Source: Verrucomicrobiota bacterium (GTDB lineage Bacteria > Verrucomicrobiota > Verrucomicrobiia > Limisphaerales > PALSA-1396). From it: 64,000 nt of DNA. The notes under the pieces were generated by a model. That model had not been told where the DNA came from, made no database searches, and saw only the letters and a program-made list of their open reading frames with translations. Made by a program: the position numbers and the translations under genes. The DNA is taken from contig JACQFP010000006.1 in the NCBI GenBank assembly GCA_016200005.1, positions 216,929-280,928 on the forward strand, given 5' to 3'. This document shows positions 9,144-62,035 of this stretch, one piece after another. Within the stretch, counting starts at the first letter, position 1; each line of letters starts with the position of its first letter.

Positions 9144-9228
9144 CCTGACCGGACCCACCCCAACCCCTCCAAGGAGGGGAGAACTGTTCAGCGCGCGCTG
9201 ACGCAGTTCCCCTCTTGGGAGGGGGTAG
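9144..9228. repeat. double-hairpin palindromic intergenic repeat, family B copy 1
   Basis: CCCACCCCAACCCCTCCAAGGAGGGGAG ... CTCCCCTCTTGGGAGGGGGTAGGGGTGGG. The arms are mutually inverted and each arm is itself a small hairpin. Related copies at 33310, 60560 and 61930. Confidence 0.8.
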
Positions 9229-9289
9229 GGGTGGGTTCCGTCTGCAGAAATGTATTTTGACAGTCGGTTTGGTTTCATAAACTACGCCT

Positions 9290-10222
9290 GTGACTGGCCA
9301 ACATGCTCAACCCGCAACCCTCAACTCTCAACCTCCCGGCTATCGCGGTCGCCTCGCGCCGTCGCCAACCGGCTTCTTGCATCTCGGTCACGCCCGCACC
9401 TTCTGGATTGCGCAGGCACGCGCGCGCTCCACTGGCGGCATACTGGTGTTACGCAACGAAGATATTGACGCCATGCGCTTCAAACTGGAGTTCGTCCCGG
9501 CGATGATCGAGGACCTGCGCTGGTTCGGTTTTGCGTGGCAAGAAGGGCCGGACTGCGGCGGGCCATTTGGTCCGTACAACCAAAGCCAGCGATTTCAATT
9601 CTACCGGGCCGCACTCGACAAACTACGAACCGACGGCTTCATTTACCCCTGCACCTGTTCGCGCAAAGATATTCAATCCGCTGCCCGCGCGCCGCACGCC
9701 AATGATGACGATGAACCAATCTATCCCGGCACCTGCCGCGCGCGAAAAGAGGTCAGAGGCCAGAAGTCAGATTTCGGAGTTCCGATTTCGGACCTCCGAC
9801 TTCCGACCTCCGACCTGCGCTTCAACTGGCGTTTCCGCGTCCCTGATGCCGAAACCATTTCCTTCACGGACGGCCACTACGGTCCGCAACAGTTCATCGC
9901 GGGAAACGATTTCGGCGACTTCGTTGTCTGGCGACACGATGATGTCCCTGCCTACCAACTCTCCGTCGTAGTGGACGATGCCGCCATGAAAATCACCGAA
10001 GTCGTGCGCGGCGCCGACCTGTTGAAATCCACAGCGCGCCAAATCCTCCTCTACCACGCGCTTGGTCTCCACCCACCTGCCTTTTATCATTGCCCGCTGC
10101 TGACCGATGAATCCGGTGCCCGGCTAGCCAAGCGCTACGATGCTCTCAGCCTGCGCAGACTCCGCGAGAGCGGTGGAACACCGGAATCCCTTCGCCAGCG
10201 ATGGCTTCAGTCGTTGCCTTGA
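9290..10222 (+). CDS. gluQ: glutamyl-Q tRNA(Asp) synthetase
   Basis: YRGRLAPSPTGFLHLGHARTFW (HIGH region), truncated GluRS catalytic core, 310 aa. Carries a low-complexity insert at 9750-9816. Confidence 0.8.
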   Translation: MTGQHAQPATLNSQPPGYRGRLAPSPTGFLHLGHARTFWIAQARARSTGGILVLRNEDIDAMRFKLEFVPAMIEDLRWFGFAWQEGPDCGGPFGPYNQSQRFQFYRAALDKLRTDGFIYPCTCSRKDIQSAARAPHANDDDEPIYPGTCRARKEVRGQKSDFGVPISDLRLPTSDLRFNWRFRVPDAETISFTDGHYGPQQFIAGNDFGDFVVWRHDDVPAYQLSVVVDDAAMKITEVVRGADLLKSTARQILLYHALGLHPPAFYHCPLLTDESGARLAKRYDALSLRRLRESGGTPESLRQRWLQSLP

Positions 10223-33309: not shown

Positions 33310-33388
33310 ACCCACCCCCAGCCCCTCCCAAGAGGGGAGCGGCGCACGGTGGATTGTTCCCCTCCCGGGAGGGGTCAGGGGTGGGTAG
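33310..33388. repeat. family B double-hairpin repeat, copy 2
   Basis: CCCACCCCCAGCCCCTCCCAAGAGGGGAG...TTCCCCTCCCGGGAGGGGTCAGGGGTGGG, between coxG-like and coxM-like genes. Confidence 0.8.
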
Positions 33389-33496
33389 GTTGGCAGCAAG
33401 ATCATGGGAGAGGGTGGCCGAAGGTCGGGTAAGGGGATCGCTATTTTTCTATCCGGAATTCTTTTATGGCAATCACTTCAAAATGTTAGGACCGTA

Positions 33497-34373: not shown

Positions 34374-36716
34374 TTACAAAGGGAGAGACGCTGATGAAAT
34401 CGCGTTCCATACTTTTTCCGGCGTCAGCGGCAGATCGAGATGCCGGACGCCGAGCGGCGAAAGCGCGTCGATGACGGCGTTGGCAATCGCCGGAGTCGCG
34501 CCGATGGTGCCAGCTTCGCCCACGCCTTTGATGCCCATCGGATTGCTCGGCGACGGCGTGACGGTGCTGCCCATCAGGTATTCCGGGATGTCGCGGGCGC
34601 GCGGCATGGCGTAGTCCATGAATTCGCCGGTGAGTAACTGGCCATTCTCGTCATAGACCGTGCGCTCGAACAAAACCTGGCCCAGCGAATGAGCAATACC
34701 GCCCTGCACCTGCCCTTCAACCAGCAATGGATTCACCTGCGGGCCGCAATCGTCCACCGTCACGTACTTCACAATCTTCACCTCACCGGTGTCGCGTTCC
34801 ACTTCAACAGCGACAATGTGCGTGCCAAAAGGAAAAGTGCAATTTGGCGGCTCGAAGAAACTGGATGCTTCAAGGCCAGGCTCGAAATTTTTCGGCAGAT
34901 TTTTCGCAACGTAAGCTTCAGCCGCCAGTTGCGCCCACGTCAGCGCTTTCTTGGGTCTGCCCTTCACAAAGAATTTCCCGTCGCGAAATTCAACTCGTTT
35001 CGCTGAAGCACCGAGCAGATGCGCAGCAAGAATTTTCGCCTTGGCGATGATCTTGTCGATGCACATGACGATGGCCGTCCCGCCCACGACCGTTGCGCGG
35101 CTGCCGTAAGTGTCGCGACCATAATGAGCCACAGCCGTGTCGCCACGCATGACGACGACGTCTTCGATGAGCACGCCGAGTTTGTCCGCGGCGATTTGAG
35201 CGAAGCTGGTTTCCTGTCCCTGTCCGTGCGGCGAGACGCCCGTGATGACGGTGACCTTGCCGGAAATCTCCATGCGCACGCAGCCCCATTCCCAACCGCC
35301 CGCGGCCATCATCTTCGACGGTCCGAGCGCGCAGATTTCGACATACGTGGAAAGGCCGACGCCAAAAAGTTTGCCGGCTTTGCGCGCCGTCTCGCGTTGC
35401 TTGAGCAGCTTGTCCCAGTTGGCCATCTTCTGCGCCTTCCGCAGCGCGCCCTGGTAATTGCCGCTGTCGTAGGTCAGACCGGTGGCGGTGTTGAAAGGAA
35501 ACTCGCTTGGCTTCGGAAAATTCTTCAGCCGCACCTTCACGGGGTCGAGACCAAGTTCATCGGCGATGATGTCCATGAGCCGTTCGACGAGGTAGGTCGC
35601 CTCCGGTCGGCCCGCGCCGCGATACGCGTCGGTGGCCATCTTGTGCGTGTAAACCCCGGTCACATCCATGCGCGCCGCCTTGAGTTTGTAACAACCGGCG
35701 AGCATCAGACCCGTCAACGTCGGAATGGCGGGCGTCAGCAGTTGCAAATACGAGCCGAGGTCGGCGATGGTGCGGGCTTTGATGGCGAGCAAGGTGCCAT
35801 CTTTTTTCACCGCCACTTCGTAATCGCCAATCTGGTCGCGGCCATGAATCGTGGCCGAGGCGTTTTCGCGGCGGCTTTCAATCCACTTGATCGGCGCACG
35901 GAGTCTCATGGCGAGGTGCGAGCAAAGCGCTTCTTCGGCGTATAGGTTTAGTTTCGAGCCAAACCCGCCGCCCACTTCTGGTGCAACGATGCGGATTTTA
36001 TTTTCCGCCACACCGATCATGCCGGGCAAGAGCGTGCGCACCAGATGCGGAATCTGCGTGGAAGTCCAGAGCGTGAGCGTGCCTTCGCCGGCGTGAAATG
36101 ACGCAACGCAGCCGCGCGGCTCGATGGCCATCGGCGTGAGCCGCTGATGAACCATCCGCTGTTTGATGACGCGATCGGCCTGCTTGAACGCGGCGTCAAG
36201 ATCGCCATTGGCCAGCGACCAGGTAAAGGCGACGTTGTTGCCGAATTCCGGATGCGTGAGCGGCGAATCTTTCGCGAGTGCTTTTTCGGGATCGCTGACC
36301 ACCGGCAACGGATCGTAGTCAACGTCGATCAAATCCAGCGCGTCGCAGGCCGCGTAACGATCGGCCGCGATCACCACGGCCACCGGATGTCCGACGAAAT
36401 AAACGCGGTCGCCAGCCAGCACGGTGTGTTTCGGCGCTTTCAAGTCAGGAAACGTGGAAGAGCACGGCACGACACCGCATTTGTCATTCACGTCGGCACC
36501 AGTGAATACGCCAACGACACCTGGGAGGGCTTTCGCGCCATCGGTCTTGATCCGGTTGATCATGGCGTGGGCGTACGGGCTGCGCAGAATGGCGGCGTGC
36601 AGCAGGCCTGACATTTTGAGGTCGTCCACATAGGTGGCGATGCCCTTGATGAGGCGCGGGTCTTCGACACGCTTCATCGCGCGACCGAAGTAGCCGTTGG
36701 ATTTCGCCGCTTTCAT
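34374..36716 (-). CDS. molybdopterin-binding large subunit (form II CoxL-like / xanthine dehydrogenase family)
   Basis: Start at ATG 36716 (MKAAKSNGYFGRAMKRVEDPRLIKG). Active-site loop AYRGAGR (form II type, not the AYxCSFR of bona fide CO dehydrogenases). Confidence 0.85.
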   Translation of the reverse strand: MKAAKSNGYFGRAMKRVEDPRLIKGIATYVDDLKMSGLLHAAILRSPYAHAMINRIKTDGAKALPGVVGVFTGADVNDKCGVVPCSSTFPDLKAPKHTVLAGDRVYFVGHPVAVVIAADRYAACDALDLIDVDYDPLPVVSDPEKALAKDSPLTHPEFGNNVAFTWSLANGDLDAAFKQADRVIKQRMVHQRLTPMAIEPRGCVASFHAGEGTLTLWTSTQIPHLVRTLLPGMIGVAENKIRIVAPEVGGGFGSKLNLYAEEALCSHLAMRLRAPIKWIESRRENASATIHGRDQIGDYEVAVKKDGTLLAIKARTIADLGSYLQLLTPAIPTLTGLMLAGCYKLKAARMDVTGVYTHKMATDAYRGAGRPEATYLVERLMDIIADELGLDPVKVRLKNFPKPSEFPFNTATGLTYDSGNYQGALRKAQKMANWDKLLKQRETARKAGKLFGVGLSTYVEICALGPSKMMAAGGWEWGCVRMEISGKVTVITGVSPHGQGQETSFAQIAADKLGVLIEDVVVMRGDTAVAHYGRDTYGSRATVVGGTAIVMCIDKIIAKAKILAAHLLGASAKRVEFRDGKFFVKGRPKKALTWAQLAAEAYVAKNLPKNFEPGLEASSFFEPPNCTFPFGTHIVAVEVERDTGEVKIVKYVTVDDCGPQVNPLLVEGQVQGGIAHSLGQVLFERTVYDENGQLLTGEFMDYAMPRARDIPEYLMGSTVTPSPSNPMGIKGVGEAGTIGATPAIANAVIDALSPLGVRHLDLPLTPEKVWNAISSASLPL

Positions 36717-37261
36717 GGTGGCGGGTGATTGGTGATCGGTGATGGGGGGTCGGTGATCGGTGACTCGGCGAGCAACGCGTCGGAACACGACAGGTCATCG
36801 TCGTTCACGCGGTAAGGGACAGAGTCTTCCCGCAAACCGAGGTTTGCGCCGGTTTTGCTTTCGCGCAGATAGCGGATATAGCCGTTAATCAGACGCAACA
36901 CGCTGGCCGCTTCCGCTTTGAGTCCTGCAACCTCGGCCGGGGTCAGATAGCCCTCGTCCTCGCAAGTGTTGAGGTCGTCAACAAGTTCCGACACCGAGCC
37001 TCTGGCGATCAGCACGAAACGGATATTGTCCGCGTAATGATACCGGCCATGCCCTTCAGCAACGTTATTGGTGACGGACAACGCGGCCTTGCGCATTTGC
37101 GGATTCAACACAAACTTCTCCGTGTCCAGCAACGACTTCGCGACACGGTACATCTTCTTTCGAAACTCTCGTGCCGTCCGATAAAGTTCCAAATCTTCAA
37201 ATGAGCCGTATCTTGTCGTTGTCTGTTCCATAACCATTTCAGTGTGTCGTAGGTTCACCAA
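36713..37261 (-). CDS. four-helix-bundle protein (23S rRNA intervening-sequence protein family)
   Basis: FEDLELYRTAREFRKKMYRV...QMRKAALSVTNNVAEGHGRYHYADNIRFVLIARGSVSELVDDL. Its C-terminal tail is encoded by GATCGGTGA-type repeats, and its stop overlaps the coxL-like ATG (ATGA). Confidence 0.8.
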   Translation of the reverse strand: MVNLRHTEMVMEQTTTRYGSFEDLELYRTAREFRKKMYRVAKSLLDTEKFVLNPQMRKAALSVTNNVAEGHGRYHYADNIRFVLIARGSVSELVDDLNTCEDEGYLTPAEVAGLKAEAASVLRLINGYIRYLRESKTGANLGLREDSVPYRVNDDDLSCSDALLAESPITDPPSPITNHPPP

Positions 37262-37282: not shown

Positions 37283-37762
37283 TCACTTCTCCACCCGCGC
37301 CATTTTCTTCGCCGCGTATTCGATTGCATCAACAATGTGCGAATAGCCGGTGCACCGACAGAGGTTGCCTTCAATCCCATGGGCAATTTCATCGCGCGTG
37401 GGTTTGGGATTGCGTTGGAGCAATTGGACGCCGCTCAGAATCATGCCGGGCGTGCAATAACCGCACTGCAACCCGTGACATTCCCAGAAACCTTCCTGGA
37501 CCGGGTGCAACTGGCCGTTGCGGGCGAGTCCCTCGATGGTGGTGATCTGCGAACCATCCGCTTGAACGGCCAGAAGGGTGCATGACTTCACGGCTTGGCC
37601 ATCCATCAACACGGTGCAGGCGCCGCAGATGCTGGTTTCGCAGCCGATGTGAGTGCCGGTCAGGTTGCAGTGATCGCGCAGAAAATGGACCAGCAGCAGG
37701 CGGGGTTCGACTTCGTGCTGATGCTGAACTCCGTTGACGGTGATGTTGACAAGACTTTTCAT
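37283..37762 (-). CDS. (2Fe-2S)-binding small subunit (CoxS-like)
   Basis: [12 protein letters not shown] and CGYCTPG cluster motifs. Confidence 0.9.
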
Positions 37763-37918: not shown

Positions 37919-37994
<76 letters not shown>

Positions 37995-38145: not shown

Positions 38146-40281
38146 ATGATTTGGATCGCCCCATCCGAAAAGGACACCGACAACGCCGCACTCGAAAAAC
38201 GCCTCTGGGACGCCGCTGACCAGTTCCGCGCCAACTCCGGCCTCAAGTCCCAGGAATACTCCGCGCCCGTCCTCGGCCTCATCTTCCTGCGCTTCGCCGA
38301 GGTTCGCTTCGCTGCCCAGCGCGCCAAGCTGGAGAAAGCCAGCGCCTCCGCCCGCCGTGGATCACGGCTGGATGAACCCGCCGCCTATCACGCCGAGGGC
38401 ATCCTCTATCTGCCCGCCGAAGCGCGGTTCGATTACCTGCTCAACCGCCCCGAAGCCGAGAACATCGGCGCGAAGGTCAATGCCGCCATGCGCGACATCG
38501 AGAAGCACAACCCGCAACTCGCTGGCGTCCTGCCCAAGACCTACAACCTCTTCACCAGCACCCTGCTCAAGGAACTACTCAAGAAAGTCTCCGAGATTCC
38601 CGCCTCGCTGGACTACGACGCCTTCGGGCGCATCTACGAATACTTCCTCGGCGAGTTCGCCATGAGCGAGGGTCAGGGCGGCGGCGAATTTTACACCCCC
38701 AGCAGCATCGTCCGCCTCCTCACCGAAGTGATTGAACCCTATCACGGGCGCATCCTCGACCCCGCGTGCGGTTCGGGCGGCATGTTCGTCTCCTCCGCGC
38801 GCTTCGTCTCCGAGCACAAGCGGCAAGCTGCCGCTGGCAAATCTTCTCCCTCGCCCCTCGGAGGGGAGAGGGCCGGGGTGAGGGGTGAAAACTATTCCGG
38901 TGATCCATCCAAAGAACTCTCCATCCACGGCGTCGAGAAAACCGACGAAACCGGCCGCCTCTGCCGCCTGAACCTCGCCGTCCACGGCCTCGAAGGCGAA
39001 ATCAAACACGGCGGCAACATCAACAGCTACTACGACGACCCGCACGACGCCACCGGCCGCTTCGACTTCGTCCTCGCCAACCCGCCGTTCAACGTCAACG
39101 CCGTGGACAAGGAGCGGTTGAAAGACATGGTCGGCCCAGGCCGCCGCTTCCCCTTCGGCCTGCCGCGCACTGACAACGCCAATTACCTCTGGATTCAACT
39201 CTTCTATTCTTCGTTGAAGAATGGGGAGGCCGGAACTTCCGGCGGGCGGGCCGGCTTCGTCATGGCCAACTCCGCCTCCGACGCCCGCTCCTCCGAACAG
39301 GAACTCCGCCGCCAGCTCATCGAAAGCCGCGCCGTGGACGTGATGGTCGCCGTCGGCCCGAACCTCTTCTACACCGTCACGCTCCCCTGCACCCTCTGGT
39401 TCTTCGACAAGGGCAAGGGCAAAAGTGGGCGCACCGACTCGGTGCTGTTCATTGATGCCCGCCACATCTACCGGCAGGTGGACCGCGCGCACCGCGAATG
39501 GACGCCCGCGCAGATTGGCTTCCTCGCCAACCTCGTCCGCCTCTATCGCGGCGAAGCCCTCGACTTCACATTGGGTGGCGAAGAAGCGAAGGCCAAAATC
39601 CTTGAAGTGTTCGCCACCCAACCCTCACCCCATCCCTCTCCCAACGGGAGAGGGGGCTACAAGTTTGCCGGATTGGTCGAACGTGGTCGGGAATTGCGAA
39701 AGAAGCAGACGCCAGCCGAGGCGGTCCTGTGGGAAGTGTTGCGTGACCGGCAGTTTGAAAATCTGAAATTCCGGCGGCAACATCAGGCGGGCGATTACCT
39801 CGTGGATTTCTTCTGCCACGAACACAGCCTCGTCGTGGAGGCTGACGGCGACGTTCACGATGCTGGCTATCAGAAGAAGCACGACAAGAAGCGCGATGCA
39901 TGGCTGCGAGGACAGGGGTTCACGGTCCTGCGTTTTCGCAACGAGGACATCTTGAACGATCTTGAATCGGTGCTCGGGAAAATCGCCGCCGCTCTCCCTT
40001 CTCCCGCTGGGAGAAGGGCCGGGGATGAGGGTGACTGCAAGGTCGCGTATCGCGATGTTGCAGGCTTATGCCGCGCCGCCACGCTCAAGGAAATCGAAGC
40101 GCAAGGCTGGTCGCTCAACCCCGGCCGCTACGTCGGCGTGGCCGCCGGCGAAGCCGTGAGCGACGAGGACTTCAAGGAACAACTCGAAACGCTGAACGAG
40201 GAACTCGAAACCCTCAACGCCCAAGCGCGCGACCTCGAACAAACCATCGCCGGCAACGTGGCGGAGATTCTGGAGGCGTGA
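38146..40281 (+). CDS. hsdM: Type I restriction-modification methyltransferase subunit HsdM, carrying two in-frame insertions
   Basis: HsdM_N ([13 protein letters not shown]), AdoMet motif [11 protein letters not shown], catalytic ANPPFN, C-terminal [25 protein letters not shown]. At 711 aa it is longer than I expect for HsdM. Inserts at 38844-38887 and 39622-40031. Confidence 0.9.
38844..38887. repeat. family A ([11 protein letters not shown]) hairpin element inserted in-frame in hsdM
   Basis: TTCTCCCTCGCCCCTCGGAGGGGAGAGGGCCGGGGTGAGGGGTG, with inner stem CCCTCGCCCCTC/GAGGGGAGAGGG plus the right outer arm GGGGTGAGGGG. Translated as [16 protein letters not shown] between motif I and the rest of the methylase core. 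Confidence 0.75.
39622..40031 (+). mobile_element. inverted-repeat-bounded DUF559 (Vsr-like endonuclease domain) cassette inserted in-frame in hsdM
   Basis: Left end CCCTCACCCCATCCCTCTCCC (39622-39642), right end GGGAGAAGGGCCGGGGATGAGGG (40009-40031), imperfectly inverted. The interior encodes [58 protein letters not shown]...[17 protein letters not shown]. Boundaries are +/- a few nt. Confidence 0.7.
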
Positions 40282-40283
40282 CG

Positions 40284-41512
<1,229 letters not shown>

Positions 41513-41516
<4 letters not shown>

Positions 41517-44062
41517 ATCCGAAATCCAGTCCGCTTGGTTCAATCTGGCGAAAGTGGGATTTGCACTTTCACACGCCGGCTTCTTACGACTACGGTCACA
41601 AAGGCGCGACCAACCAGGAAATCGTTGACGGGCTACTCAAGGCCGGCATTGAGGTCGTTGCCATCACCGACCATCACCGAATCGACACGGCACGAGTCTT
41701 AGAACTTCAGAAGCTGGGAGGCGAAGACCTTACGGTGCTGCCAGGGATCGAGTTGAGGTCAGAGTTGGGCGGCAGCGACTCGGTTCACTTCATCGGCATC
41801 TTTCCTGAAGACTCCGATCTAGTGGACCTGTGGACGAAGTTGTCCGGCAAGCTCAATATCACTGAAGCAGAGGTGGCCAAGCGCGGAGACGACACGATCT
41901 ATTGTCCGTTCGTCGAAACGGCAAATGTGATACACGAACTAGGCGGCTTGGTGACCGTGCATGCTGGAAAGAAATCGAATTCTATTGAGGGCCTCAAGAA
42001 CACCGACTACATCAAACAGATTATCAAAAAGGATTTGGTCAGGGAGTGCATTGACATCTACGAGGTCGGCGATGCCACCGACATCCAAAGTTACCTTGAA
42101 AAGGTGTTCCCGCACCTTGACCGGCCAATCCCGCTGATTCTGTGCTCGGACAATCATGACATTCGGGGCTATTCGACGAAGTGCCCGCTTTGGATTAAGG
42201 GAGACAAGTCATTCGAGGCGCTGCGACAAACACTTTTTGAGCCGTCGTGTCGCGTTGGTGTTACACCGGATAAACCGCTGAAGCCGCTGTTGCGGGTGGA
42301 CCGCGTCACCTTGGATTTTCCTGCTGAAACCGAGCTGGTTTCGGAGTTTAACGGGGAAGAACGTCGCGACGCATTCTGCTTCAGAGGAAAGGCTGCGGTG
42401 GTTTTTAGTCCGTATCTCACTTGTTTGATCGGGGGAAGAGGTTCAGGCAAGAGCACTCTGCTAAATCTGATTCATGAGAAACTTGAGCGGGGACAGAACA
42501 AGTTTTTCGCTGCAAATCATCTTGCCCCACAGCCAGACGCTTCAGTCGCCACCTGTGTTCAGATTGACGGTGACACCGCAAAGAAGGTTGTCGAGTTCTT
42601 GCAGCAAAACGAAATCGAGGGCTTCGCCACCGACCCCTGGCGTTTCACGGAAGCCGTCTTTTCTAGGCTCGTGAAGCGGGACGAGGAGGGCAAACTCAAC
42701 GCGGTTAACGCTGAGTTGGCCGCCGCGTTATCCGCAACGGCTGAACAGGCGAAGCGATTACAGGAGCACACCGATTTGGTGTCACGGCTCGCAGATGCGG
42801 AGAAGGAATTAGTATCCAAGAAGGCGTTGATTGCCTCGTTCCAGAACGAAGAATACAAACGCATCAACGACGAGATGGGTAAGTTAAGCCAAGAACTCCA
42901 AGGCTTGCGAATCTGGAGGGAACGGCTTGAAGCGCTGAAGAACGACCTCAACAATTTGCCGGAACATCACAGCCATCCGATATCCGAGAACCCTAACGGC
43001 TACGAAAAAGAATTTCTGCGAATACTTGGTGTCGTCCAAGGCGCTGTGCAGCCACCTCAACCAAGTGCGGAGATGGCTGCGGCTGCCAGTCGAGAGGCTG
43101 ACTTAAACGGCCAAGTTGCCGCACTGAAAGAAAAACTCGACGCATTCCTCAGAGGGCGAGGGCTTTCGCAGGAGAATCTTGCCGATGTGGGAAAGGCAAA
43201 TCAAAGAGCTGCGCAACTGGAGCATGAGCTGCCCTCACTCAAGGCAAGAACCCAAACACTCGCCGCGCAAATCTCGGCCTTCCGGGCGCGGCGAGACTTG
43301 CCAGAAAAATACTCTGGCGCGGTCCAAGCGCTCCTCGCTCCGATTAACAATGCACTCAGGAATCTGAGCAAAGAAGTTAAACAAATCGAGTTGCACTATG
43401 AATTTGATTACGGCGCGTGTCGCCAGACGCTGATTGAACACATTCAGGATGTGTTGGGCGATGCAGGCGTCCGGATTGACCACGTCGAAAGCATGTTGCA
43501 GGACGTTGACCTGTTCCGTTTGGACAGCCGAGAAAAGTTCCTTCAAAGAATCTCGGACGCACACAAAACCGGTAAGGCCATCCGCGAGTGCTACTCGATT
43601 CCGCTGCGGTTCGACCTTCTGCGCATCGAAGTTGAACGGCAGTTGCTCGAAGTTGGAGGCTTTGGCCGTTTCCGAGTGCTTTATGACAAGAAGCCAGTCG
43701 AAAACACATCGTTCGGCCAGCGATGCACCGCGGCCATCGTCGTGCTGTTGATACTAGGGAATACACCAATCGTGATCGACGAGCCAGAAGCGCACTTGGA
43801 CAGCGCGCTCATTGCGAATTACCTGGTCGAGCTCGTGAAGAGCAAGAAGGTCAACCGCCAGATTATTTTCGCGACCCACAATGCAAACTTCGTGGTCAAC
43901 GGTGACGCCGAGCTGATCCACATTTTGGAGATGGGGGACGACAAGCAATCCAAAATCGTGAGCACAACTATCGAAGACCTGTCCCACCGCTCCGAGTTGC
44001 TTCGCCTCGAAGGTGGGCCAGAAGCTTTCTTGAAGCGCGAACACCGTTACGGCATCGCATAG
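41513..44062 (+). CDS. PHP-domain phosphoesterase fused to a Rad50/SMC-like ABC ATPase with coiled-coil insert (candidate R-M-embedded defence effector)
   Basis: PHP ligand motifs DLHFHT, ITDHH, GIE, VHAG, SDNHD in aa 1-250. Walker A GGRGSGKST (aa 307-315), ~230 aa of helical/heptad-like sequence, SFGQR, Walker B IVIDEPEAHLD (aa 753-763), FATHN. The ATG overlaps the hsdS stop (ATGA). Confidence 0.8.
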
Positions 44063-44072
44063 AACCCAAGCC

Positions 44073-44936
44073 ATGCCCCACGCCTACACCGAAGACCAGC
44101 TTGTCGAGCAGCCCGCCATCGGGTTGTTCGCGGAGCTTGGCTGGGCCGTGGCAGTGCCACCTCCCAATGCCGGCGTGGCCGGCGAGCCGCGTGACGCCGG
44201 GTTGCTCGGGCGCGAGACGAAGGGCGAGGTGGTATTGGTGTCCCGGTTGCGCGCGGCGTTGGAGCGGCTCAATCCCGCGCTGCCGCCCGAGGCCATCACC
44301 GCCGCCGTGGACGAATTGACCCGCGACCGTTCGGCCATGAGCCTGGAGGCGGCGAATCGCGAGGTGTATCGGTTGTTGAAGGAGGGGATTCCCGTTTCCG
44401 TGCTGGATGCGGAATCGACACCTCACCCCGGCCCTCTCCCCGGTCGAGGCGGAGAGGGTGCGAGCCGCACGGGAAATCACGGTGCGCTGGGGACAGCACG
44501 CCCTACCAAGGGAGGTCAGACCAGTGTCCGGGTGCGGGTGATTGATTGGGAGCATCCGGCGAACAATGGTTTCCTGCTGGTCAGCCAGTTCAGCGTCACG
44601 GGCGCGCTCTACACCTGCCGCCCGGATTTGGTCGGCTTCGTCAACGGCCTGCCGCTGGTGGTCATCGAGCTGAAGCAGCCCGGCGTGCCAGCGCGTGCGG
44701 CGTTCGACGAGAACCTGACGCACTACAAGGCGGAAATACCGCAGCTCTTTTGGTTCAACGCGCTGCTCATCGCCTCGAACGGCACGGAGAGTTGTCAGTC
44801 ACCTGTCTTCAAGCGGCGATTCTTTGGCTCGCCAAGAAACCCGACCGGCCATCCACTGTGCCTTCTTCCACTACGCACGCCGGAATCGCGTTGCGATTTT
44901 GCAGAACTCGATGCGCGATTTCTTCCATCGTCGTGA
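44073..44936 (+). pseudogene. hsdR: truncated Type I restriction subunit HsdR (N-terminal nuclease domain only)
   Basis: MPHAYTEDQLVEQPAIGLFAELGW..., with the PD-(D/E)xK core RPDLVGFVNGLPLVVIELK. Family-like sequence stops after ...LLIASNGTES (aa 240, nt ~44792). The remaining 47 codons are antisense to arnD. No helicase motifs were seen anywhere downstream. Confidence 0.8.
44421..44464. repeat. family A hairpin element inserted in-frame in hsdR remnant
   Basis: CCTCACCCCGGCCCTCTCCCCGGTCGAGGCGGAGAGGGTGCGAG, with left outer arm, inner stem CCCTCTCC/GGAGAGGG and a degenerate right arm. Translated as PHPGPLPGRGGEGAS. Confidence 0.7.
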
Positions 44937-51652: not shown

Positions 51653-51957
51653 GCCCGGCGCAGTAAAACGTGGAACAAGCCCGCTCGCAATTGCAATTAA
51701 CTCGTCAGTCATTGGCGGCACAGGGCAATGTCCGTGGAGCAATCGAGTCACCAAGATTGTGCCGTCAGTTGACGGCTACATAATGGAGTTAAGATTTCCA
51801 AAAAACTTTTTCACAAGTTCCGGGCAAGTTTGCTTCAATTCGGCACCCCGGAGGTTTGCAGGCGTCTGTGCGAGCTTTTTGTTTCGCAGTTTCGTAGTGC
51901 GTAAAGTAAAGGGGTCGGTTCTGAATGGCCCTTAGATAAGGCCCATAAAGTAAAGTA

Positions 51958-52988
51958 AAGGGGTCGGTTCTTGGTATTGACAACTGTTGATGGGCGGTTC
52001 ACTCTCCCATCCATGGCGCGCAAGTTACGAGTGGAATATCCGGGGGCGATTTATCATGTGATGAATCGCGGCGACCGGCGTGAGGAGATTTTCAAGGATG
52101 ACCCGGATCGGGAGCGCTTTCTGGAAGCGCTCGGCGAGGTGTGCAAGAAGACCGGCTGGCAGGTTCATGCGTTGTGCTTGATGGAGAATCATTTTCATCT
52201 GGTGGTAGAGACGCCGCAGGGCAATTTGGTGGCGGGCATGAAATGGTTTCTGGGCACTTACACTTCGCGGTTCAATCGTCGTCACAAGTTGTTCGGGCAT
52301 CTGTTCAGCGGTCGTTACAAGGCGTTGGTGGTGGATGGCAGTGGCAGCGGGTATTTGAAGACGGTCTGTGATTACGTGCACTTGAATCCGGCGCGGGCGA
52401 AATTGTTGTCAGCGGACGAATCGTTGAGAAGTTATCGTTGGAGCAGTTGGCCGGAATACTTGAAGCGGCCCGGCAATCGCTGGCCGTGGTTGCGGGTGGA
52501 TCGCTTGCTGGGTGAGTATCGGATTCCCGAGGACAACGCGGCGGGGCGGCGGCACTTGGAACAGGAACTGGAAGCGCGGCGCCAGGCGGAATCGGGAGCG
52601 GATTACAGAGCGATTCGACGGGGCTGGTGTCTGGGTGAGAAAGCCTTTCGCGAGGGATTGCTGGAGCAAATGAGCGAGCGCTTGGGCGCGGAGCACTACG
52701 GAGAGGAGCGGTTGGAGACGGGGACGGAGAAGGCGGAACGGATTATCCGCGAGGAATTGAAACAACGGCGCTGGAAGGAACGAGATCTGGCGAAGCGGGC
52801 CAAGGGTGATGTTGAGAAGGTAAAACTGGCCGGACGATTGCGTGAAGAAACGACGGTGACGGTGAAGTGGATTGCGGAGCGGCTTGAGATGGGGACGGCG
52901 GGTTACGTGAACAACCGGCTGTATCGCTGGCGCAAAGGAACGTTGCCTAAGTGAGCATGGAGTGACTGATACCAAGAACCGACCCCTT
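51958..52988 (+). mobile_element. REP-flanked RAYT unit (IS200/IS605-like Y1 transposase bounded by a perfect 20-bp inverted repeat)
   Basis: AAGGGGTCGGTTCTTGGTAT at 51958-51977 and its exact reverse complement at 52969-52988. An extra partial direct copy AGTAAAGGGGTCGGTTCT lies at 51905-51922. Confidence 0.8.
52013..52954 (+). CDS. REP-associated tyrosine transposase (RAYT, Y1_Tnp/IS200-like) with charged C-terminal extension
   Basis: YPGAIYHVMNRG, LCLMENHFHLVVETP (HuH motif), FSGRYKALVV (catalytic Tyr context). Start at ATG 52013. Confidence 0.85.
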   Translation: MARKLRVEYPGAIYHVMNRGDRREEIFKDDPDRERFLEALGEVCKKTGWQVHALCLMENHFHLVVETPQGNLVAGMKWFLGTYTSRFNRRHKLFGHLFSGRYKALVVDGSGSGYLKTVCDYVHLNPARAKLLSADESLRSYRWSSWPEYLKRPGNRWPWLRVDRLLGEYRIPEDNAAGRRHLEQELEARRQAESGADYRAIRRGWCLGEKAFREGLLEQMSERLGAEHYGEERLETGTEKAERIIREELKQRRWKERDLAKRAKGDVEKVKLAGRLREETTVTVKWIAERLEMGTAGYVNNRLYRWRKGTLPK

Positions 52989-53058: not shown

Positions 53059-54702
53059 TTAGCCAAGGTCTGTTCGGCTGCCGTCAACGGCATCGAGGCT
53101 TATCCGATCGAAGTCTTTCGTCGCGTGGCGTCGGAGCGCGTCCTTGACGGCTTCCGTGCCACCGGTCGTTTTTTCGGGAAGCTTCGCGCCCGCTTTGAGC
53201 AGCAACTCGACGGTCGTGGCGTAGTCTCCCGTCCGGCAATACCAGCCATGTTCCGAGCCGTGAATGGCCCATCCCAGTGGCGTGCTATGGAAGTCTGCAT
53301 CGGTCAGTTCGAGCGGCGGTTCGTAACGAAGGATCTCGCGGGTCAACTCCGCATTCCCATGAAACGCCGCCCAGTGCAGCGGCGTGGCACGATGCTGGCC
53401 GAGCGAGTCCACGGGCAGACCCGCAGTGAGCATCACGCGGACGGCGGCGAGATTGTTGTTCCGCGCAGCGTGAGCGACCTGGCGATGATAGGCGTCGGAC
53501 AAATCGGCGACGAGGTCAGGCTCTTGGGCGAGCAAGGATTTCACCGCGGTTTCGTCAACGGCCCAGCAAGCAGCAAGCAGTCTCACGTCGGCGGGACTGC
53601 GTTCCATCAATAAACGGAAGACGTCGTCGTGACCGAATTGCTTGGCGACGTCGTGCGGCGACACGTACCAACCGAGCGCCCATTGATAAATCGTTCCACC
53701 GGCCTTTTTGTTGATCATGGGAAAATATTCGTCGCTCACGCGCACGTGAATGCAGCCGGGATCGGAGTCCAGATGTTTGCGAACGAGGTCCGCGTCGCCC
53801 AGCGCTGCGGCCATGAGGATGTCGGTCTTGCAGCCGCGCTGAATCAAGTAACGCGCGATCTCCTGACGGTCGCCCACCATCCATTGTGCCGGTGTGGAAT
53901 CGTGGTCGATGTCGCGGGCGTCAATGTCTGCGCCGTGATCCAGCAACCACTTCGCGATTTCGACCGTGCTGGCAAAATGTAGCGGCGTCTGTCCATCGCC
54001 GCCTCGCGCATTCACTAGCGACGGATTGGCCGAGATGAGTTCACGGACCTTCTCGTTCATGCCGAGGCGTGCGGCGGCGTGCACATCCACGACGGCGCCG
54101 CGCTGTATTGCGTACGCGGCCAGGTCAGGTTTCGCGCCGTGCAAGAGCCCGAATCCGCCGGCCCACCACCGGCTCTTCGCATTGATGTCCGCCCCGGCTT
54201 CGAGCAACACGTCCAGCATCTCGCGGCTGCGCACCTGCGTGATCACCGGCGCGTCGAAGGCCGCCACGGGTTCGTTGATCTTTGCCTTCATCGCGGGAAA
54301 ACGTTCGAGTAACTGGCGGAACATGGTTGCGTCATTGTCTATAAATGCTTTCTTGAACAGTTCAACCGGGTCGTCTGCTTTGAGTGTGATGGAGTCCACA
54401 TGCTCCTTGAGCTTCATCCAACTGGCGAAACCGTATTCGCGAGCGATGACAAGTTGCGCGTCGTGAAGGCGGAAGCCTTTTCCCCTCACCCGACCTTCGG
54501 TCACCCTCTCCCCATCCGATGGGGAGAGGGATGGGGTGAGGGGCGTTCTTGGTGATTTGACCGACGAACCACCAAAGTCGGGATGAAGCTCGCGCATGCG
54601 ATTCACCGCCGCCGGCTCGCCGGCGAGATATTTTTTGAGGAGGTCTTTGGCCTGGTTCTTGAGTTGTTCAAGATTGGGCCGCGAAGGAAGCGACTTTGAC
54701 AT
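53059..54702 (-). CDS. ankyrin repeat protein
   Basis: Multiple TPLHxA/G..G...vv..LL..GAD repeats (e.g. GQTPLHFASTVEIAKWLLDHGADIDA, ATPLHWAAFHGNAELTREIL). Contains an in-frame family A repeat near the N-terminus. Confidence 0.85.
   Translation of the reverse strand: MSKSLPSRPNLEQLKNQAKDLLKKYLAGEPAAVNRMRELHPDFGGSSVKSPRTPLTPSLSPSDGERVTEGRVRGKGFRLHDAQLVIAREYGFASWMKLKEHVDSITLKADDPVELFKKAFIDNDATMFRQLLERFPAMKAKINEPVAAFDAPVITQVRSREMLDVLLEAGADINAKSRWWAGGFGLLHGAKPDLAAYAIQRGAVVDVHAAARLGMNEKVRELISANPSLVNARGGDGQTPLHFASTVEIAKWLLDHGADIDARDIDHDSTPAQWMVGDRQEIARYLIQRGCKTDILMAAALGDADLVRKHLDSDPGCIHVRVSDEYFPMINKKAGGTIYQWALGWYVSPHDVAKQFGHDDVFRLLMERSPADVRLLAACWAVDETAVKSLLAQEPDLVADLSDAYHRQVAHAARNNNLAAVRVMLTAGLPVDSLGQHRATPLHWAAFHGNAELTREILRYEPPLELTDADFHSTPLGWAIHGSEHGWYCRTGDYATTVELLLKAGAKLPEKTTGGTEAVKDALRRHATKDFDRISLDAVDGSRTDLG
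54482..54543. repeat. complete two-armed family A element inserted in-frame in the ankyrin gene
   Basis: CCCCTCACCC-gaccttcggtca-CCCTCTCCCCA-tccga-TGGGGAGAGGG-a-TGGGGTGAGGGG, with nested outer and inner inverted repeats. Translated on the minus strand as TPLTPSLSPSDGERVTEGRVRGKG. Confidence 0.8.
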
Positions 54703-61929: not shown

Positions 61930-62035
61930 AACCCGCCGCCAGCCCCTCCCAGGTGGGGAGCGGCCCGCCTGCTTCGCGGTGGGCAGGCGCACGGTCGCTT
62001 GCTTCCCTCTTGGGAGGGGTCAGGGGTGGGTTGGG
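61930..62035. repeat. family B double-hairpin repeat, copy 4 (with extended flanks 61868-62105)
   Basis: CCGCCGCCAGCCCCTCCCAGGTGGGGAG...TTCCCTCTTGGGAGGGGTCAGGGGTGGG. Flanked on both sides by GAGAATTCCCCGAAAG motifs. Confidence 0.75.

Follow-up and report, generated by a model that had tools for sequence, protein, structure and literature searches.

In the 64,000-nucleotide stretch of contig JACQFP010000006.1 from a Verrucomicrobiota bacterium (hereafter the window), a 44-nt hairpin element at 38844-38887 lies within hsdM, the methylase gene of a Type I restriction-modification (R-M) system. The element is a copy of the BoxC/PIT/TMECO repeat—a known pan-bacterial motif, and not the separate "family A" proposed in the initial annotation of the window—and, with a probability of roughly 0.6, it represents the nuclease-less state of a system of hairpin-flanked DUF559 cassettes that colonises tolerant loops of R-M proteins in frame. 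This reading is founded on the identity of the element with BoxC, the indel that it forms in HsdM, the presence of full cassettes at the same site, a clean deletion of the nuclease in one allele (P0027), the mosaic structure of the alleles, the association of hairpins with DUF559 genes, and the selection acting on the nuclease. The gene and the features within it are as follows.

38146-40281, plus strand: intact open reading frame (ORF) of hsdM, 711 aa, carrying three copies of the repeat as well as a DUF559 domain (ORF and Pfam)
38824-38901, plus strand: net in-frame indel relative to empty orthologues, 78 nt or 26 codons (insertion block after residue 226 in the orthologue alignment; DNA comparison with the empty allele P0039)
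38844-38887, plus strand: one-armed element of BoxC/TMECO type (anatomy and identity to E. coli TMECO no. 18), with 5′ arm CCCTCGCCCC (38848-38857), loop TCGGA (38858-38862), 3′ arm GGGGAGAGGG (38863-38872), spacer CC (38873-38874), and G-box GGGGTGAGGGG (38875-38885)
39622-39654, minus strand: left end of the cassette, with C-box CCCTCACCCC, AT, and hairpin CCCTCTCCC-AACG-GGAGAGGG (fold z = -2.85)
39679-39996, plus strand: DUF559 domain, a Vsr-like PD-(D/E)xK nuclease, embedded in frame (Pfam E = 1.7e-35)
39997-40031, plus strand: right end of the cassette, with hairpin CCTTCTCCC-GCT-GGGAGAAGG, followed by G, CC, and G-box GGGGATGAGGG (fold z = -2.17)

In-Frame Indel in a Variable Loop of HsdM

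The product of the hsdM ORF, identical to the protein P0001 (NCBI) of a Verrucomicrobia metagenome-assembled genome, contains the Pfam domains HsdM_N (residues 16-147), N6_Mtase (156-463), and DUF559 (512-617); the first two, together with motif I (DPACGSGG), motif IV (ANPPFN), and an adjoining hsdS gene at 40284-41516, identify it as HsdM. The 44-base sequence quoted in the initial annotation was confirmed at 38844-38887, and the peptide that it encodes sits between FVSEHK and ELSIHGVEK.

A protein search with HsdM returned thousands of close relatives, the best 120 of which, with backbone identities of 74-95%, were aligned. The basal form of the protein is 539 aa long. After residue 226, 83 of the 120 proteins are empty and read HK(K)NPAAEL, 19 contain short hairpin-coded peptides, 15 contain a full DUF559 cassette, and 3 contain other short inserts. 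The orthologue alignment, which had been called for as a check, thus bears out an in-frame indel, though not one of about 44 bp: the hairpin element alone is not divisible by three, and the net insertion of 78 nt, which is, consists of the hairpin element together with a diverged flanking patch. Likewise, the insertion does not lie in the conserved catalytic core proper, as had been claimed, but in a loop linking the helix after motif I to strand beta-2, and it appears as a gap in a variable loop when aligned to PDB 3khk. An AlphaFold2 model of the whole protein, of low quality (mean predicted local distance difference test score, pLDDT, of 61) and used qualitatively only, predicts residues 232-250 (pLDDT <50), 492-505, and 619-631 to be unstructured, low-confidence linkers, and DUF559 to be a separate, confidently folded unit (pLDDT ~80-90).

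Identity with the BoxC/PIT/TMECO Repeat

BoxC of E. coli is the element that was rediscovered as PIT and renamed TMECO, with 23 copies in strain MG1655 and a presence in >260 genomes (Holder et al., 2015, PMC4666352); its G-rich half has been named cHPG2 in a preprint (bioRxiv 10.1101/032615). The element at 38844-38887 has the same three-block architecture, that is, a C-rich block, a loop of 3-6 nt, a complementary G-rich block, a loop of 2-3 nt, and a second G-rich block (GGGGTGAGGG). Its stem of 10 bp contains a single G.A mismatch and is closed by a loop of 5 nt. The sequences of TMECO nos. 1 and 18 (PMC4666352, Table 1) were used for alignment, and the window element was found to be identical to no. 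18 at 34 of 36 positions, the differences being confined to the loop. Further features in common with BoxC are the conserved G.A stem mismatch, the CC spacer of "type B mm," and dispersal in multiple copies, including inverted pairs. Indeed, with ≤3 mismatches allowed, the G-box and its spacer have six matches in the window where 0.28 would be expected, a number that none of 100 shuffled sequences reached. These dispersed, over-represented copies of the G-box repeat occupy five loci, including two outside hsdM:

44420-44458, minus strand: another copy of the repeat, read in frame within truncated hsdR (ORF 44073-44936)
54483-54542, strand not assigned: two-armed copy (C-box, spacer mini-hairpin, hairpin, and G-box), in frame in the minus-strand ankyrin-repeat ORF 53059-54702

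The first of these splits the HSDR_N Pfam match of its ORF into two stretches. The second, with both arms present, has a DNA fold of -27.8 kcal/mol (z = -6.8). The copies at 38844, 44420, and 54483 thus lie inside ORFs. TMECO has been described as "always located intergenically" and as unconnected to mobile elements (PMC4666352); intergenic location is, however, a description of the E. coli copies and not a strict criterion for BoxC. The difference lies in context: the E. coli copies are intergenic and have no protein partner (PMC4666352), whereas those considered here are translated in frame and occur systematically with DUF559 genes.

The folding of the solo copy at 38844-38887 (DNA, -10.3 kcal/mol) is unremarkable for its composition (z = -0.6), and hairpin energy was dropped as evidence for this copy, since shuffled sequence folds equally well. 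It is also true that the element is read through without a stop, as had been pointed out, yet this is expected, because five of its six frames are open. It is therefore recurrence and context, and not folding energy or read-through, that mark out the element. An Rfam scan of the window detected two tRNAs only, and no RNA family at 38844-38887. The view that the element is no repeat but an ordinary low-complexity linker of the host, able to form a hairpin by chance, would suit a loop that varies naturally and that is longer at this place in PDB 3khk; it is refuted by the near nucleotide identity with E. coli BoxC, the number of window copies, and the absence of the insert from 83 of the 120 orthologues, and its probability is negligible.

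A role as a structure-forming regulatory or instability element—with triplex, G-quadruplex, or hairpin potential itself the function, in pausing, rearrangement, or the variation of hsdM, and with the DUF559 association incidental—is improbable. The HsdM loops are hypervariable, an isolated TMECO oligonucleotide or strand forms a stable triplex in vitro, and the only link found for TMECO loci is with local genomic variability, these loci being more variable between E. coli strains (PMC4666352). The triplex was not detected in duplex DNA or in vivo, however, and promoter or terminator activity was not found in earlier work (PMC4666352). Furthermore, shuffled sequence folds as well as the solo copy does, and the enrichment of hairpins beside DUF559 genes, given below, would be left without explanation.

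Beyond the window, a scan for GGGAGAGGGNNGGGGTGAGGG in one genome per species yielded at least 120 stretches, nearly all with a complementary left stem, from Proteobacteria, Cyanobacteria, Verrucomicrobia, Planctomycetes, Acidobacteria, Chloroflexi, Actinobacteria, and other groups. Solo copies are depleted in coding sequence: among the matches listed, open frames span 46 of 121, compared with 265 of 360 random segments. In-frame solo copies nevertheless occur in Mfd, LigA, an ABC transporter, an IcmF-like mutase, HsdR, the LpdA linker, GlnE, and a YgiQ-type radical SAM protein, mostly at domain boundaries.

Empty, Occupied, and Deleted States of the HsdM Loops

The loops after residues 425 and 493 of HsdM show the same classes of state as that after residue 226, residue 493 being the site of the window's own cassette, and further solo hairpins are found in orthologues after residues 62-67 and 303. 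Presence and absence of the nuclease ORF are polymorphic at sites 226, 425, and 493 among backbones that are 75-95% identical, and the states are intermixed even among those ~95% identical. In the 15 full cassettes at site 226, the DUF559 domain is bordered by hairpin-coded peptides of the PSP..GEG type. Individual alleles at this site carry the same element as the window (P0075), a homologous element with indels (P0049), a two-armed element with a spacer mini-hairpin (P0002), or a full cassette consisting of C-box, hairpin, DUF559, hairpin, CC, and G-box (P0006 and P0015). The right junction ..TAYTCCGGYGATCC, encoding the peptide YSGD, is common to the P0006 and P0015 cassettes and the window copy, and is absent from the empty alleles.

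The element and the ends of the DUF559 cassette do belong to one repeat family, as the initial annotation had it: over 24 nt, the sequence at 38844-38887 and the left end (39619-39642) are 88% complementary, and with the right end (39990-40033) the element aligns in direct orientation. Its further proposal, of a one-armed or internally deleted derivative of the cassette, finds a true counterpart in P0027. At site 493, this allele has a left junction identical to that of the window cassette and retains both hairpins, with only GGC-GCGGCGGCGAAT between them, including the Ala-Ala-Ala of the DUF559 C-terminal helix; P0027 is thus a clean internal deletion of the nuclease ORF from a cassette. Together with the full cassettes at site 226, it supports the proposal in general; for the copy at 38844-38887 itself, origin by deletion is less certain, given its flanks (see below).

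The reading register was also informative. Copies embedded in HsdM are read as G[GD]EG (79), PSPxPSP (19), or GVRG (8), and never in the other open frames (0), whereas solo copies in genes other than hsdM use all open frames. Descent of the HsdM-embedded copies from frame-constrained cassettes is therefore argued.

Comparison of the window with P0075 showed 85% identity overall and 92-99% over 38461-39090; hsdM alleles are mosaics, in which homologous recombination transfers the element along with a short stretch of flank. Since they are star-like as well as mosaic, the alleles could not be polarised for gain versus loss by mapping to the nearest backbone neighbours.

In the same alignment, peptides coded by other repeats were also seen in the loops after residues 425 and 493, namely LNSQPSTLNSP, NRKSKIVN, IRNPQSAIRN, and GRVTPCAPSA...EPYQ, and the LNSQPSTLNSP-type repeat recurs at the start of window ORF 9290-10222 (9305-9335). 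These organisms therefore translate at least three more repeat families in frame.

Hairpin Flanks of DUF559 Genes

A metagenome scan with the DUF559 domain of the cassette gave 80 loci at 52-97% identity. A broad DUF559 alignment was too divergent for this purpose, and the narrower one used biases the 80 loci toward relatives of the window cassette, a bias partly offset by a search of representative clusters and a sample of plasmids. Pyrimidine/purine hairpins within 150 nt were found on both sides of 73 of the 80 cassettes and on one side of the remaining 7, with none lacking them (0/80); hairpin density was 7.3 per kb near DUF559 and 0.13 per kb further off, a 55-fold difference. Nearly all of the cassettes (74/79) lie in frame inside HsdM (42), HsdR (27), or HsdS (5) genes, at several insertion positions in each. 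A free DUF559 protein starting at an internal TTG was considered and rejected as not convincing, the conserved Leu codon being TTG in just 38 of 79 cassettes.

A word-indexed search with the 108-aa DUF559 domain returned 27 proteins only, and an exhaustive HMMER search returned 24,730 representative clusters (50%-identity representatives) with DUF559. Among the best 150 of these, 70 are ≥250 aa long, and their partner domains are Methylase_S (25), N6_Mtase (13), Eco57I (9), MmeI_Mtase (8), and HSDR_N (5), with single cases of UvrC, RecG, CobW, SpoU, PolyA_pol (poly(A)-polymerase head domain), and a tRNA-ligase anticodon-binding domain. Stand-alone DUF559 proteins frequently have hairpin-coded tails. 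In the plasmid sample, 10 of 12 distant DUF559 genes (37-54% identity) from other phyla have a C-rich/G-rich hairpin-plus-box within 150 nt, the hairpin sequences being lineage-specific; the sources include Synechocystis, Deinococcus, Sinorhizobium, Azospirillum, Qipengyuania, Sphingomonas, Photobacterium, Picosynechococcus, Methylobacterium, and others. DUF559 genes have also been reported to be 14-fold enriched among predicted inversion targets (PMC9881135), as is expected of genes bounded by inverted repeats.

The flanks of DUF559 genes bear on a further alternative, in which BoxC is a repetitive extragenic palindromic (REP)-like sequence mobilised by a REP-associated tyrosine transposase (RAYT), an IS200-like Y1 transposase such as that encoded by ORF 51971-52954. 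This Y1_Tnp ORF lies ~1.5 kb from the two-armed copy at 54483-54542, and REP/RAYT systems also have inverted hairpins around a single gene. The ORF is bordered, however, by its own perfect 20-nt inverted repeat (AAGGGGTCGGTTCTTGGTAT), unrelated to BoxC, and it is DUF559 genes that BoxC-type hairpins flank, in the cassettes and nearby in the distant genes alike. RAYT as the mobiliser of BoxC is accordingly disfavoured and very improbable. The Y1 repeats are at 51909, 51958-51977, and 52969-52988, with an extra half-copy upstream, and form with their enzyme a pair separate from BoxC.

In E. coli, the end of ycjD (..NRRSPSP*), a DUF559 gene, falls within a degenerate hairpin, and TMECO no. 9 lies ~170 nt downstream; at MG1655 1351040-1351410, a partial duplicate of the ycjD 3′ end (..ETVLENIRQGLNR..) is found between the two. 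The gene is present in 3378 of 5426 complete E. coli genomes. Alleles without ycjD proved uninformative as a test for an empty site, because a different island (TetR/RND) occupies the locus. Five inverted TMECO pairs in E. coli have their G-boxes pointing inward with only 16-30 nt between them, and G-boxes also point inward, toward the DUF559 gene, in Variovorax and Sinorhizobium, opposite to the outward layout in the window. Since the inward layout of the E. coli pairs is the same as that of these Proteobacterial DUF559 flanks, the pairs might be emptied cassettes. In cyanobacterial plasmids of Synechocystis and Picosynechococcus, a hairpin-flanked DUF559 gene adjoins DUF1156 genes, and in the latter also DUF499; in Synechocystis, its neighbours are a short DUF1156 ORF on one side and a long unannotated ORF on the other, perhaps the parts of a split gene.

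The Embedded Nuclease

The sequence of the embedded DUF559 domain indicates that it is under purifying selection, with a median dN/dS (ratio of nonsynonymous to synonymous substitution rates) of 0.16, and 0.017 between the window and the locus L130; its catalytic D, E, and H are invariant. The window domain matches PDB 3hrl with E = 2.3e-17, and DUF559 matches the same entry with E = 1e-37 in a profile comparison. Steczkiewicz et al. (2012, PMC3424549) placed DUF559 in one group with Vsr and 3r3p, the intron homing endonuclease. In addition, a Caulobacter DUF559 protein causes an SOS response in a methylase mutant, and DUF559 proteins can therefore damage DNA in vivo (PMC12907096).

Proposed Cycle of Cassettes and Remnants

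In the favoured explanation, a hairpin-bounded nuclease cassette would invade a tolerant loop of a Type I R-M gene, the hairpins encoding flexible linkers that would allow the host protein to tolerate the insert. Cutting by DUF559 at or near hairpins, followed by repair, may drive a homing-like spread. Alleles at residue 226 would then cycle between the empty state, the full cassette (C-box, hairpin, DUF559, hairpin, and G-box), and short remnants with one or two hairpins. The nuclease could be lost via deletion between the near-identical hairpins, giving short forms that would pass between alleles with a flanking patch via homologous recombination, and its loss would be followed by decay or re-invasion. 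We infer that the copy at 38844-38887 descends from a full cassette; it may persist because its patch is a multiple of three, because the G/C-only sequence is nearly stop-free, and because it encodes a Pro/Ser/Gly-rich linker in a variable loop.

The alternative that deserves most space is an independent insertion of a solo BoxC copy into the HsdM loop, never part of a cassette and spread by slippage, template switching, or a factor in trans, with DUF559 cassettes as later invaders, for which the existing hairpins, offering homology on both sides, would serve as landing pads. Two-armed solo elements would indeed offer ~21 nt of homology to each cassette end, in-frame solo copies occur in unrelated genes (Mfd, LigA, the ABC transporter, the IcmF-like mutase, GlnE, and the radical SAM protein), and both the prevalence of solo copies and the flanks of the window copy, detailed next, fit such an origin. 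A never-occupied site would not be expected to yield the DUF559 C-terminus remnant in P0027, however, and neither the reading register of the cassette, common to all HsdM-embedded copies, nor the YSGD right junction, common to full-cassette alleles at site 226, is in its favour. Independent solo insertion is thus considered unlikely, though it retains some weight.

Several observations count against the cassette cycle. Over 630 nt around 38844-38887, the window is 97% identical to the empty allele P0039, 96% to P0075, and 86% to a full-cassette allele; as the flank comes nearest to empty alleles, a short patch may have brought the copy in, instead of a deletion at the site. It has, moreover, a single arm, and its G-box is read in the rarer GVRG register. 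A DUF559 gene lies nearby in 3 of 120 BoxC loci among the matches listed, with flanking on both sides in 2 of these; as the other 117 are without one, most BoxC copies are solo, and these could have spread by another route. No target-site duplication rises above background in the flanks of 60 cassettes, the longest shared word averaging 3.37 against 3.28 for shuffled pairings; a possible NPAA/DPxx duplication after residue 226 has an identity of 6/12 only. The enrichment in R-M genes could partly reflect tolerance of insertion and co-transfer, and not targeting. The match of the DUF559 profile to the homing endonuclease 3r3p ("Mobile intron protein") is weak (E = 0.005), and the orthologue set derives from metagenome assemblies, in which repeats may be misassembled. 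Finally, to our knowledge, DUF559 is not a known transposase and has no demonstrated homing activity, and we know of no biochemical link between DUF559 and hairpins.

More broadly, DUF559 genes and BoxC-type hairpins can tentatively be regarded, at somewhat less than even odds, as one previously unrecognised, pan-bacterial class of selfish element. Its full form would be a Vsr-like nuclease with inverted hairpins on either side, the hairpin linkers sparing the host protein without splicing; solo hairpins would be remnants, landing pads, or partners mobilised in trans, and one large lineage would be specialised in R-M genes (hsdM, hsdS, hsdR, and MmeI/Eco57I-type).

Comparison with Known Mobile Elements

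[quoted passage not shown] The repeats described here are unrelated to RPEs in sequence, shorter (~40 nt versus ~100-150 bp), composed of G/C only, and distributed across phyla; furthermore, RPEs have no known autonomous partner, whereas here the coding "full-length" form is the DUF559 cassette.

Systems of REP sequences or their paired form, REPINs, with a RAYT likewise combine inverted hairpins around a single gene, many dispersed solo or paired copies, and no target-site duplication. Here, in contrast, the enzyme is a PD-(D/E)xK Vsr-like nuclease and not a HUH Y1 transposase, and the cassettes, present in multiple copies, sit in frame within host genes.

Homing endonuclease genes, above all those of the Vsr-like I-Bth0305I family (3r3p), with their cycle of invasion, decay, and loss, show the same presence or absence at fixed sites of host genes, mosaic alleles with co-conversion-like tracts, coexisting degenerate and empty states, and the same fold class. 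They differ in that no intron or intein is involved here, the cassette staying as an extra domain on hairpin-encoded linkers, and in that the bounding repeats also occur elsewhere in the genome. Consistent with this, no self-splicing intron or intein family was detected at the cassette by Pfam or Rfam, and the cassette is translated through.

Classical MITEs derived from insertion sequences are short non-coding derivatives that have the ends of a longer coding element; among the repeats described here, two-armed copies, such as that at 54483-54542, likewise carry terminal inverted repeats. The comparison drawn in the initial annotation, which called the element MITE-like, is apt insofar as its ends are shared with a longer coding element. 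The copy at 38844-38887 has the right G-box only, the left C-box and hence terminal inverted repeats at both ends being absent. Because there is no target-site duplication and DUF559 is not known as a transposase, "MITE" serves as an analogy only and does not denote membership.

Neighbouring Genes and Other Repeats

The ORFs 3′ of hsdM are hsdS, an AAA/PHP ORF, and a truncated hsdR. The second of these (41513-44062) encodes 849 aa with a PHP-like N-terminus and an AAA_21/AAA_15 ATPase; in other alleles, the position between hsdS and hsdR is taken by RhuM, Bro-N, GmrSD, or AIPR genes, and it looks like a variable slot for defence genes inside the operon. The hsdR gene at 44073-44936 is reduced to 287 aa, with HSDR_N as its sole domain, and borders on an Arn-type operon of the opposite strand. 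Because of this truncation, the R-M system of the window probably no longer restricts. Beside its BoxC copy, the same ORF has a second repeat-coded stretch (..GALGTARPTKG..). Upstream of hsdM, a tRNA gene (37919-37991) lies at ~150 nt, so that the R-M island adjoins a tRNA. The neighbourhoods in which orthologous hsdM genes lie are quite different.

A sister repeat family has three copies in the window, at 9152-9236, 33310-33385 (plus 33406-33436), and 61935-62030, all intergenic. Its layout is that of an emptied cassette, with ACCCACCCC, a hairpin CCCCTCC..GGAGGGG, 20-50 nt of filler, a second hairpin, and AGGGGTGGGT; the segment 33406-33436 also has the variant of the G-box with a spacer hairpin known from the copy in the ankyrin-repeat ORF.

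A minus-strand ORF at 36713-37261 encodes a four-helix-bundle protein of the 23S-rRNA-intervening-sequence type, between genes for the large (34374-36788) and small (37283-37762) subunits of a CoxL/CoxS-like molybdenum hydroxylase. The 23S-rRNA-intervening-sequence-type protein gene family is itself suspected of being mobile.

Significance

The BoxC/PIT/TMECO repeat is conserved nearly base for base from E. coli to Verrucomicrobia, and for some 30 years has had no known origin, partner, or function. In the open-access literature, no paper was found that links it to DUF559 or describes in-frame cassettes. Thus, the element itself and the in-frame palindromes of Rickettsia were known, and it is the coding context and the candidate nuclease partner that appear to be new. 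The locus offers such a candidate partner for BoxC in the DUF559 nuclease, whose family includes E. coli YcjD, and the repeat is tolerated inside proteins of many phyla. The cassettes would represent an invasion of genes without splicing, in which a nuclease domain enters the loops of R-M proteins on hairpin-encoded linkers. Overall, these findings bear on the diversification of R-M systems, on the way in which "fused" methylase-endonuclease proteins are annotated, and on a hidden source of the Pro/Ser/Gly-rich inserts that bacterial proteins contain.

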